Assembly (NCBI GenBank): GCA_902801685.1
Contig: CADCIZ010000001.1
Location: forward strand, 1 to 60,610
DNA from: an uncultured Erysipelotrichaceae bacterium
GTDB lineage: Bacteria > Bacillota_I > Bacilli_A > RF39 > UBA660
DNA length: 60,610 nt
Direction of reading: 5' to 3'
The position numbers and the translations under genes are program-made. Below the pieces are notes generated by a model, which made no database searches, was not told the DNA's origin, and saw nothing but the letters and a program-made list of their open reading frames with translations. This document shows, piece by piece, positions 11,686-12,693 of this stretch (positions within the stretch are counted from its first letter, which is position 1; the number at the start of each line of letters is the position of its first letter).

Positions 11686-12693
11686 TGCAGACTTAGAGAA
11701 TGTTACAACTGGGCGAACGACGCCATTCCAGTAATTCCAAACCTCATGAGCAAACACATAACCATCATAGTTAATATCCCAGACACGACGAGCCTCATCT
11801 TGATATGGACTCATTGTCCAATAATAGTAATTACTATTGTAAACCCAACTTGGTGTATTTTCGTTATTAAGATTTATATATGTTGCATCTTTAGCAGCAG
11901 GTTCATATCCTAAAGAAGTTGTTAATTCTTCATATGTTAAAAGTCTTGCTTTATATCCAAATTTGTCGGTTGCTAAATCAGACTGAGTTAATTTATCATT
12001 AGCCCATGCATCTACGGCAAATTTAATATCAGAGTCATCATAATCACTTGTACATCCAGTCTCAGCACCTGATTTACACGTATCACTACTATAGTAAGTC
12101 ATTCCACCATAACCATTAGAATTATACGCAACACCTTGTGATGAAGTTGTATATCTATTAATATGTCCTGCACCATAAGTTGTTACTTCATCTACTGTAA
12201 GTGGAGTTTCTTTAAGTGCAGTTACTGATGCCTCTTTTGCACCACTTGCACTTACTACATAGAATTTCATTCCTTTGTATGTAATTTCATCTCCTACGTT
12301 ATATACTTTATACGATGGAGACTTATCAGTTCCATATACATATCCTTCTACAGTTCTATTTTTTACTGTACACCCAGCAAGATATACTGATGAATCTGGA
12401 TTAATTTGTGTAGTTTCACAAGATACTGTATCTCCTGAATATTCAATTGTTAATTGAGATACTTCTGTTGGAAATTTACCTGTATCAAGTAAATACCCAG
12501 CAATTGCAAGTTCAATACTTCTTCCATACGCATCAACACTTCTCTTATCAGCTGCAATTCTAGCCTTTCTAATAATGTTCATAACTAAAGGTGTTACTAT
12601 TAAAGCGATTATTGCCATAATTACGAGTACAGCAATTAACTCGATTAGAGTAAATCCTCTAACTTTTCTTTCTTTTACCTTTTCAATTTTCAT
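11680..12693 (-). CDS. DGR target protein: type IV pilin/pseudopilin-like N-terminus fused to a lectin-like C-terminal variable domain
   Basis: Class III signal peptide: KVRG|FTLIELIAVLVIMAIIALIV, with Gly at -1, Phe at +1 and Glu at +5. The C-terminus YYYWTMSPYQDEARRVWDINYDGYVFAHEVWNYWNGVVRPVV carries the VR. Confidence 0.85.
   Translation of the reverse strand: MKIEKVKERKVRGFTLIELIAVLVIMAIIALIVTPLVMNIIRKARIAADKRSVDAYGRSIELAIAGYLLDTGKFPTEVSQLTIEYSGDTVSCETTQINPDSSVYLAGCTVKNRTVEGYVYGTDKSPSYKVYNVGDEITYKGMKFYVVSASGAKEASVTALKETPLTVDEVTTYGAGHINRYTTSSQGVAYNSNGYGGMTYYSSDTCKSGAETGCTSDYDDSDIKFAVDAWANDKLTQSDLATDKFGYKARLLTYEELTTSLGYEPAAKDATYINLNNENTPSWVYNSNYYYWTMSPYQDEARRVWDINYDGYVFAHEVWNYWNGVVRPVVTFSKSAL
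11709..11795 (-). repeat. DGR variable repeat (VR) at the 3' end of the target gene
   Basis: 73 of 87 positions are identical to the TR. 12 of the 14 mismatches fall at TR adenines. The shared 3' end GTCGTTCGCCCAG is GC-rich and IMH-like. Confidence 0.9.

Follow-up and report, generated by a model that had tools for sequence, protein, structure and literature searches.

The 3' end of a gene for a prepilin-type protein recurs, as a non-coding copy, behind a gene for a reverse transcriptase (RT). Both copies lie in a 60,610-nt stretch of DNA from an uncultured Erysipelotrichaceae bacterium (assembly GCA_902801685.1, contig CADCIZ010000001.1, positions 1 to 60,610), which we refer to as the window. 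A sequence-only reading of this DNA had aligned the two segments by hand and interpreted them as the template repeat (TR) and the variable repeat (VR) of a diversity-generating retroelement (DGR). Our analysis supports this interpretation. Genes for an RT, an Avd protein and a MutS-like (MSL) protein, a non-coding TR and a target gene with a VR at its 3' end all adjoin, and the VRs of relatives are rewritten at TR adenines. We conclude that the pair is almost certainly part of an intact chromosomal DGR that works by adenine-mutagenic retrohoming and has been active recently in its lineage. Every DGR feature open to testing was found, with the exception of the fold of the variable domain; the signals that would direct cDNA integration are candidates.

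All repeat comparisons were read on the minus strand, with positions numbered 0 to 86 along the 87-nt unit (A0 and A85 are adenines at its ends). An independent repeat search of the window returned TR and VR as the two copies of a direct-repeat family (D3), aligned over 87 nt without a gap at 84% identity. The hand alignment of the sequence-only reading was reproduced when mismatches were tabulated by TR base: 12 of the 14 fall on adenines, one on a C and one on a T. The TR is composed of 28 A, 25 T, 20 G and 14 C, and with this composition 12 or more adenine mismatches out of 14 have a hypergeometric probability of 1.0e-5. The mismatch at C (position 55) changes GTC to GTT and is synonymous, and the one at T (position 67) belongs to a change from TAT to TGG. 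Translated in the frame of the VR, the TR reads ARRVWNINNNGNVNANKVWNNYNNVVRP and the VR ARRVWDINYDGYVFAHEVWNYWNGVVRP. These translations agree with the earlier ones, as do the counts of 28 adenines and of 11 AAY codons plus one AAG in the TR. Both repeats open with AGGCTCGTCGTGTCTGG and close with GTCGTTCGCCCAG, and homology ends abruptly on both sides, no similarity being found in 40 nt of additional flank per side. The earlier description of identical GC-rich ends followed by divergence, and of homology that is lost 5' of GCT CGT, is therefore accurate; mismatches are neither spread over all four bases nor accompanied by flanking homology.

The shared end had also been called IMH-like, after the initiation of mutagenic homing (IMH) element. 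This label holds in part. The GC-rich end is indeed identical in the two repeats, while its identity as an IMH is a positional analogy only, the function of such an end being taken from the Bordetella phage model (PMC3240598). As TR and VR have the same 3' end, IMH and IMH* could be told apart only by the diverging sequence that follows directly. A permissive blastn search with the TR region against the whole window gave one partner (E = 6e-22), and the next-best match (E = 7e-5) concerned an AT-rich flank outside the TR; we therefore count one VR in the window. No open reading frame (ORF) of at least 50 aa runs across the TR, which sits in the spacer between the RT gene and the next gene.

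The proteins encoded next to the repeats are those expected of a DGR. The cassette is arranged on the minus strand in the order target, MSL, avd, RT, TR and structured RNA, and all four of its genes are intact. The reading frames of MSL and Avd overlap by 19 nt and those of Avd and RT by 29 nt, which gives the cassette an operon-like appearance. The RT carries LGCVSSQ as its version of the [I/L/V]GxxxSQ signature of motif 4, opposite IGSLTSQ of the Bordetella phage RT (bRT), and YMDD at aa 259-262. Its closest solved structure is bRT (8ub7, E = 2.8e-22), with group II intron RTs at 7e-10. A cryo-EM study of bRT names F66, R74, I76, G182 and Q187 as contacts to template and nucleotide. In our alignment these five residues are conserved in the window RT and bRT I181 is replaced by Leu; all catalytic and template-contact residues are retained. 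Avd was recognized by its Pfam family (Table 1), and a sequence search of the PDB gave no significant match for it.

The remaining accessory gene encodes a standalone MutS domain I protein. Its ORF reaches 11492, and the homologues begin with MFEVYK, corresponding to the ATG at 11459, which is preceded by the ribosome-binding site GGAAGGGAG. All 51 MSL homologues are short (~137 aa) and consist of MutS_I only. The best sequence match in the PDB covers residues 17-58 of Taq MutS (E = 0.05). Within the family a Phe is invariant and is followed at +2 by Glu or Asp in all 19 aligned members; in the window the motif reads GGFYEC and aligns with the mismatch-binding motif GDFYEC of Taq MutS, which suggests that MSL may bind mismatches. 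The neighbouring ORFs gave no HRDC match in Pfam or NCBIfam. The cassette belongs to the MSL subtype (Architecture D) within DGRs, and its compact layout together with the kept mismatch-binding motif makes the role of MSL directly testable.

Rewriting of the VR on a constant TR is seen at the population level. Relatives were examined as loci (L-numbers) from other, mostly rumen, assemblies, among them L009 from the species-representative metagenome-assembled genome (MAG) RUG12438. Each VR allele was scored against its own TR or, where the contig was too short, against the TR carrying T at position 55. The TR is identical over 87/87 positions in L001, L005 and L006, differs by one base in L002-4, L163 and L165, and matches at 79/87 positions (90.8%) in L009. 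Across eight VR alleles, 116 of 123 substitutions are located at TR adenines, although A makes up just 32% of the TR, and the L002 lineage, with its broken RT gene, accounts for five of the seven others. Of the adenine changes, 103 were counted in gap-free comparisons: 72 A>G, 22 A>T and 9 A>C. Every one of the 26 TR adenines at positions 17-72 is changed in at least one of the seven alleles compared without gaps, and A0 and A85 are never changed. The same bias is found cassette by cassette, with mismatches at TR adenines amounting to 18/18 in L009, 16/16 in L163, 13/13 in L165, 15/17 in L017 and 15/18 in L022. Divergence from the window gene reaches 23-45% inside the 56-nt core, compared with 1.8-7.4% outside it (Fisher P 7e-5 to 2e-14). 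At the protein level, the scaffold ARRVW...G.V.A..VW.....VVRPV is constant in the 20 closest target homologues (78-100% identity), and variation among homologues of at least 89% identity falls nearly exclusively on residues that correspond to AAY codons of the TR. In contrast, a comparison between paralogues (L015 against the TR of L017) places 8 of 21 mismatches at non-A bases. As far as sequences tell, adenine-confined change of the VR on a constant TR is the signature of mutagenic retrohoming and is unlike the ordinary divergence of paralogues in this family.

Some VRs are also longer than their templates. In-frame insertions in AAY/AAC runs add 3 nt in L005 (1142-1231), 9 nt in L017 (5852-5960) and 12 nt in L022 (1496-1590). 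Published work attributes insertions of this kind to template slippage by DGR RTs, and those observed here are consistent with such slippage. A scan of JGI metagenomes with the conserved 5' end GGCTNGTCGTGTCTGG returned 120 loci, all of which (120/120) were chance matches, the pattern being too short for that collection.

The two mismatches outside adenines, the only ones that the sequence-only reading had counted, turned out to differ in kind when they were followed through the relatives: the one at position 55 is a polymorphism on the TR side, and the one at position 67 is a G present in two alleles only. Position 55 is C in the TRs of the window, L001, L002-6 and L009 and T in those of L163 and L165. 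In the VRs it is T in all except L009 and the single allele shared by L005-L007. An error of the RT was considered as the source of the C to T change and rejected. Since the TRs themselves are polymorphic at this site, the mismatch in the window is a difference between TR alleles rather than a misincorporation, and it arose by mutation or by recombination between strains. At position 67 all TRs seen carry T. G occurs in two independently diversified alleles, that of the window (TGG) and that of L002/L008 (TTG), and the adjacent A66 is also changed in both. G67 may come from misincorporation in tandem, from selection of a second mutation or from a TR allele outside our sample.

The TR is followed by a conserved structured RNA. 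About 170 nt downstream of the TR are kept in four cassettes, even at 68% RT identity and with a different TR (L017, L022). RNAalifold folds the four sequences into three helices with 47 pairs, 10 of which show compensatory changes. In pairing controls, 97% of cells were paired compared with 40-48% when partners were slid, and none of 500 shuffles (0/500) reached the observed covariation. Resting on an alignment of four sequences, these data are good but not conclusive support for a structured RNA at this place. Comparative analysis alone was informative, as a single-sequence fold of the whole TR region was no better than shuffles (z = -0.8). Rfam at gathering thresholds yielded no family for the RNA flanking the TR. 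DGR RNAs are described as requiring structured segments around the TR, including functional stem-loops just downstream, and the stem-loops predicted in the window agree with this description.

Further signals surround the TR. On its 5' side a motif is kept in four divergent cassettes, and TTAGGGATAWTACTG in this region can pair with AGTRTTATTCC downstream at 10-11 of 11 positions. The duplex TTAGGGATA/AGTATTATTCC (downstream arm 9332-9341) is paired to 95% and shows no compensatory change; we regard it as a candidate for a 'cPRT Stop'-like element that joins the upstream and downstream sides of the TR. A promoter-like site overlaps the stop codon of the RT gene and lies just upstream of the conserved TTAGGG motif. 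Such sites are not enriched over shuffles in the AT-rich DNA of the window and this one is weak. The TR RNA may have a promoter of its own in addition to transcription running on from the RT gene. An inverted repeat downstream of the VR spans the end of the target gene (DNA fold z = -3.6, 0/200 shuffles as good). Inverted repeats of differing sequence occupy the same place in each divergent cassette, with z only -1.2 to -2.6. A hairpin or cruciform aids target recognition in the Bordetella phage DGR (PMC3240598), and by analogy the inverted repeat is a candidate recognition element of this type or, equally, a transcription stop. A scan for consensus terminators found none after the target gene or the TR, the stems being AT-rich.

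Table 1. Features of the DGR cassette and their coordinates in the window
Feature	Position	Strand	Remarks
Structured 3' domain of the DGR RNA (~170 nt)	9233..9401	-	P1 9346-9400, P2 9306-9331, P3 9238-9298, T-run 9233-9237; predicted structure
TR	9402..9488	-	non-coding, 42 nt past the RT stop codon, 28 A
Conserved motif TTAGGGATATTACTG just 5' of the TR	9491..9505	-	kept in four divergent cassettes
Candidate sigma-70-type promoter TTGAAT-17-TATAAT	9510..9538	-	10/12 consensus matches; site kept in L009
DGR RT, 402 aa, intact	9531..10739	-	RVT_1 2e-17
Avd, 115 aa	10711..11058	-	Pfam bAvd 2.9e-12, 47.5 bits vs gathering score 40
MSL, 139-aa standalone MutS domain I protein	11040..11459	-	Pfam MutS_I 1e-6; between target and avd
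Target, 337 aa	11680..12693	-	prepilin-type signal, N-terminal helix, small beta head, CBM_5_12-like segment, DUF6273/Lcl_C-like C-terminal domain with the VR
Nested inverted repeat across the target stop codon	11641..11700	-	starts 8 nt past the end of homology; inner stem CTCTAATT/AATTAGAG
VR	11709..11795	-	aa 301-328 of the 337-aa target; in the last 37 codons
GC-rich 3' end of the VR, GTCGTTCGCCCAG	11709..11721	-	identical in the TR; occupies the (GC)14/IMH position
Mutable core of the VR	11723-11778	-	repeat positions 17-72, 56 nt

A resemblance between two segments of AT-rich DNA might have causes other than retrohoming. The repeats might be ordinary paralogous fragments, or products of gene conversion among pilin-like paralogues, with an adenine bias that stems from AT-rich composition and selection on Asn codons. 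The 27% GC of the genome would fit such an origin, as would the large paralogous family with similar C-termini and the partial similarity of cassette-less paralogues to other TRs. However, the TR is non-coding, its flanks do not resemble those of the VR, and the share of substitutions at adenines over the eight alleles is far above the share of A in the TR. The TR holds almost as many T as A, yet T67 is the only T site changed (in two alleles). Comparisons between paralogues, such as that of L015, show many non-A differences. Moreover, RT and Avd adjoin in every case, and we consider an origin from paralogues effectively refuted. It is just as improbable that the RT is that of another retroelement (a retron, a group II intron or a defence RT) and that the repeat is unrelated to it. 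The RT does give sub-threshold NCBIfam matches to group II intron maturase, retron St85 RT and Drt3a, but these scores are far under the cutoffs (101 vs 300; 35 vs 235), and bRT is the best solved relative by 12 orders of magnitude in E-value. Rfam finds no group II intron or retron RNA in the window, avd is adjacent, and the TR follows closely on the RT stop codon.

A more serious question is whether the DGR still operates in the window genome. The RT gene has been disrupted repeatedly among relatives. Three independent lesions in close relatives all hit the YMDD-coding site (window equivalent 9954-9965). In L002-4 (three samples), a 15-nt palindromic insertion TGTAATGCATTACAT (L002:7762-7776) creates a stop codon before YMDD; in L163 (~2940), a deletion of ~88 nt removes the DD of the RT; and L008 carries a group II intron at YMDD (L008:9239-9631, Rfam RF02005 group-II-D1D4-6, 149.7 bits, E = 5e-45), which begins with GTGCG directly after TATATGGATG. 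This coincidence suggests an intron homing site in the active-site codons of the RT, possibly with footprints of insertion or loss. Other insertions are present in the cassettes of relatives, too. L008 has a 384-aa ORF with a weak DDE transposase match, resembling an insertion sequence, between target and MSL (6430-7584, minus strand), and in L166 (1924-3185) a truncation leaves 55 aa of MSL, behind which comes an unannotated 340-aa ORF. In the RT-defective L002 lineage (L002:8258-8344, also L003 and L004) the TR has a C to G change inside its GC-rich 3' end (GTCGTTCGGCCAG), and the VR of L002 shows two extra non-adenine changes, G to T and G to C. These changes of TR and VR in the L002 lineage are the pattern expected once rewriting stops.

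Several observations weigh against a working DGR in the window. Disrupted RT genes in several close relatives mean that loss of function is common in the lineage, and the VR diversification seen here is that between genomes of relatives. Avd matches the NCBIfam model DivGenRetAVD at 2.6e-13 and 50.2 bits, under the curated cutoff of 80. The inverted repeat downstream of the VR is AT-rich, has its inner stem ~23 nt past the end of homology and shows weak z in the other cassettes. Foldseek searches with the full-length and C-terminal-domain models of the target gave no significant match to any solved protein of C-type-lectin fold. The VR of the window carries T55 and its resident TR C55; a full rewriting of the VR has therefore not taken place since the present TR allele came about or was taken up, and the DGR may lie dormant. 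The window might then hold a DGR by descent only, its VR a frozen product and its cassette decaying, as the frequent cassette disruptions in L002-4, L163, L008 and L166 would suggest. We find this unlikely. The four genes of the window are intact and their frames overlap in operon-like fashion, and the RT keeps its full set of catalytic and template-contact residues. L005 shares an identical TR and RNA domain with the window; its VR carries C55 and was thus written by the same TR allele, which has therefore been used. Finally, positions 55 and 67 are the only non-A differences of the window VR, whereas the RT-defective L002 lineage has three more (two in the VR, one in the IMH-like end of the TR). 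The DGR is probably active in the window genome itself.

Taken together, the eight VR alleles on a near-invariant TR, a polymorphism that dates the last rewriting and several independent switch-offs form a natural time series, which shows how DGRs are used and lost in a rumen population. The cassette of the window is a textbook-clean cellular DGR and can be trusted as a positive control when TR/VR pairs are to be recognized by eye.

The target protein belongs to a pilin-like family. Its prepilin-type signal is G13 | F14TLIE18 in the sequence RG|FTLIELIAVLVIMAIIALI (G-1, F+1, E+5). Pfam finds N_methyl above its cutoff (3e-7) and DUF6273 over aa 237-330 (1.4e-3), the latter being weak and below the gathering score. 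TIGR02532 is above its cutoff, and there are N-terminal matches to GspG/ComGC. A scan of 45 family members detected N_methyl in 45/45, DUF6273 in 16/45, CBM_5_12 in 9/45 and Lcl_C (former DUF1566) in 4/45, and the profile of the target family matches the N-termini of MshA, PilE and GspG in the PDB. In the AlphaFold model of the target (predicted local distance difference test score, pLDDT, 89.9) a helix at 16-71 is predicted to precede a small beta head and a C-terminal alpha/beta domain, with the VR on the last strands; a model of the C-terminal domain reached pLDDT 82.8. A C-type-lectin fold of the variable domain was considered and not supported by structure search, in which the PDB yielded nothing significant and the best fold matches were DUF6273 proteins with marginal E-values (3e-3 to 0.15), including DUF6273 phage proteins among viral models. 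No prepilin peptidase, assembly ATPase or platform gene is encoded within the 60-kb window.

The target is one of a greatly enlarged family of prepilin-type proteins that share its architecture, and the protein database holds 1,908 homologues of it. A second family copy in the window (18354-19256, minus strand), 48% identical and 5.7 kb away, has no TR match. The MAG RUG12438 (L009-L030) contains ~17 full-length and several partial paralogues (about 17-20 copies), two of which adjoin an MSL-avd-RT cassette. Cassette-less paralogues (L015, L018, L011 and the second window copy) were considered as remote targets of the DGR and found no support, as their matches to TRs are partial with many non-adenine mismatches or, for the window copy, absent; they may be old targets. 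The prepilin-type target and the expansion of its family are under-described and not new in kind.

The anatomy of the cassette, the adenine-specific pattern, the rewriting of the VR on a constant TR among relatives and the conserved structured RNA rest on the comparisons above; priming, integration, the role of MSL and the ligand are inferred, and the course of events would be as follows. By analogy with the Bordetella phage DGR, an RNA containing the TR and its structured flanks would be transcribed, either together with the MSL-avd-RT message or from its own promoter. The RT-Avd complex would bind the stem-loops downstream of the TR and prime cDNA synthesis, and the TR would be copied with misincorporation opposite adenines. 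The mutagenized cDNA would then replace the homologous 87-nt VR, guided by the GC-rich GTCGTTCGCCCAG end and probably by the downstream inverted repeat. As the TR contains 11 AAY codons, up to 14 of the last 37 residues of the target could thereby be randomized while the scaffold (ARRVW, G, V, A, VW, VVRPV) stays fixed. The prepilin-type target might present its C-terminal DUF6273/Lcl_C-like domain, either on a pilus or at the surface of the cell, where it would offer a ligand a binding site that varies.

Beyond this course of events, we speculate that the cassette represents a lineage-specific DGR subtype of Gram-positive gut or rumen Bacilli, an idea that we hold with low confidence. The target would be a true type IV (pseudo)pilin whose DUF6273 head acts as a hypervariable adhesin on a fibre, one of ~17-20 paralogues per genome, some of which may be former or alternative targets. 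In the same scheme the Phe-x-Glu motif would let MSL attach to the cDNA:VR heteroduplex at its mismatches, so that host mismatch repair is kept away or one of the two strands is retained preferentially. To our knowledge, MutS-like handling of a cDNA:VR heteroduplex is known for no DGR.

The surroundings of the cassette are those of an ordinary chromosome. Elsewhere the window encodes housekeeping functions such as ABC exporters, a PcrA/UvrD-like helicase, acetate kinase, LysRS, GAPDH, ClpP and RNase R, and the genes flanking the cassette are syntenic in relatives. For these reasons we regard the cassette as a resident chromosomal element and not as phage-borne. No RT in 50,697 phage records exceeds ~37% identity to that of the window. 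The host is a Gram-positive rumen bacterium (Bacillota; the closest MAG carries an Erysipelotrichaceae label). The window also encodes two dockerin-domain proteins and a sortase (3479-4414, 30129-33206 and 45061-45807, all on the minus strand), which indicates a cell-wall-bearing, possibly cellulosome-associated rumen Bacillota, despite the 27% GC of the genome and the 'Mycoplasma/Bacilli' labels on some related MAGs.

Directly upstream of the target, a minus-strand gene (12923-14569) encodes an AAA-ATPase_like domain and a PD-(D/E)XK nuclease (PDDEXK_9). It is syntenic in L002, L003 and L008, and nothing ties it to the DGR. On the other side of the cassette, 6566-8314 (minus strand) encodes a 582-aa Asn/Val/Pro-rich protein, kept downstream of the cassette in relatives, with degenerate internal repeats of 126-138 nt (families D1, D2 and D5). 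Near the C-terminal third of this protein lie a Lys run and a transmembrane-like segment, and Pfam gives no match for it. The span 51210-60596 (minus strand) is the edge of a conjugative element with a membrane protein resembling a type IV secretion system pilin, a VirD4/TraG-type coupling protein (55973-58117) and a CHAP/SpoIID-domain hydrolase (58788-60182); RNase R (52427-54526) falls inside this span. Searches of the window for tRNAs and Rfam families returned none.

The mechanistic prototype for comparison is the DGR of Bordetella phage BPP-1 (mtd-avd-TR-brt). Both systems have adenine-specific TR/VR pairs with the VR at the extreme 3' end of the gene for a ligand-binding protein, a GC-rich identical 3' end followed by divergence, and an inverted repeat downstream of the VR. 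They also share Avd, an RT with [I/L/V]GxxxSQ and YMDD, and structured RNA flanking the TR. Unlike the phage-borne BPP-1 element, the DGR of the window is cellular and chromosomal, and it includes an extra gene for a MutS domain I protein. With the order target-MSL-avd-RT-TR, its structured, 'spacer-like' RNA comes last in the transcript and closes with a terminator-like hairpin; that of BPP-1 is placed between the TR and the RT gene. The TR is shorter (87 nt, compared with 134 nt in BPP-1). The hairpin downstream of the VR is AT-rich and further off, while in the phage a GC-rich hairpin directly follows the IMH. Finally, the target is pilin-like with a DUF6273-like domain, in contrast to the phage tail-fibre tip varied in BPP-1.

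Among cellular DGRs, the closest architecture is found in the survey of 372 DGRs by Wu et al. (2018, NAR, PMC5758913), which describes MSL accessory genes, the co-occurrence of avd and the order avd-RT-TR. Its account of MSL-DGRs ('Architecture D', including the Legionella DGR) lists 16 examples with MSL proteins of 112-283 aa. The cassette of the window resembles these, as far as they are described there, in combining a small MutS-like gene (139 aa) with avd and lacking HRDC. In the family examined here, the Phe-x-Glu/Asp motif is conserved across 19 MSL members. With respect to the variable domain, DUF6273 is documented as a domain that DGRs vary in Faecalibacterium prophages, where the VR is found at its C-terminus (PMC11792537), and like other DUF6273 or DUF1566/Lcl_C targets, the target of the window has its VR at the C-terminal end of a DUF6273-like domain. 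In contrast to the Faecalibacterium prophage targets, which are tail or Ig-like fusions, the domain is here fused to a prepilin-type N-terminus in a cellular protein.

Pilus proteins have been linked to DGRs before. Tip adhesins of Bacteroides type V pili are diversified by DGRs (bioRxiv 10.1101/2024.11.15.621889), and there, too, the adhesive part of a pilus subunit is varied, but type V pili are unrelated to type IV pilins. A 'GspG-type pilin' is listed among rare VR-bearing domains (PMC11661182), as one line of a survey table without anatomy, population data or family description, and the large DGR survey by Roux et al. does not mention pili. MSL genes, the avd-RT-TR order, DUF6273/Lcl_C-type variable domains and slippage indels in AAY runs are thus already published. 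What is modestly unusual about the DGR of the window is the prepilin-type N-terminus of its target, the large paralogous family to which this target belongs and the group II intron at the YMDD codons of one relative. Its target class is barely described in the DGR literature and suggests that Gram-positive fibre degraders carry variable adhesins anchored to pili or to the membrane.

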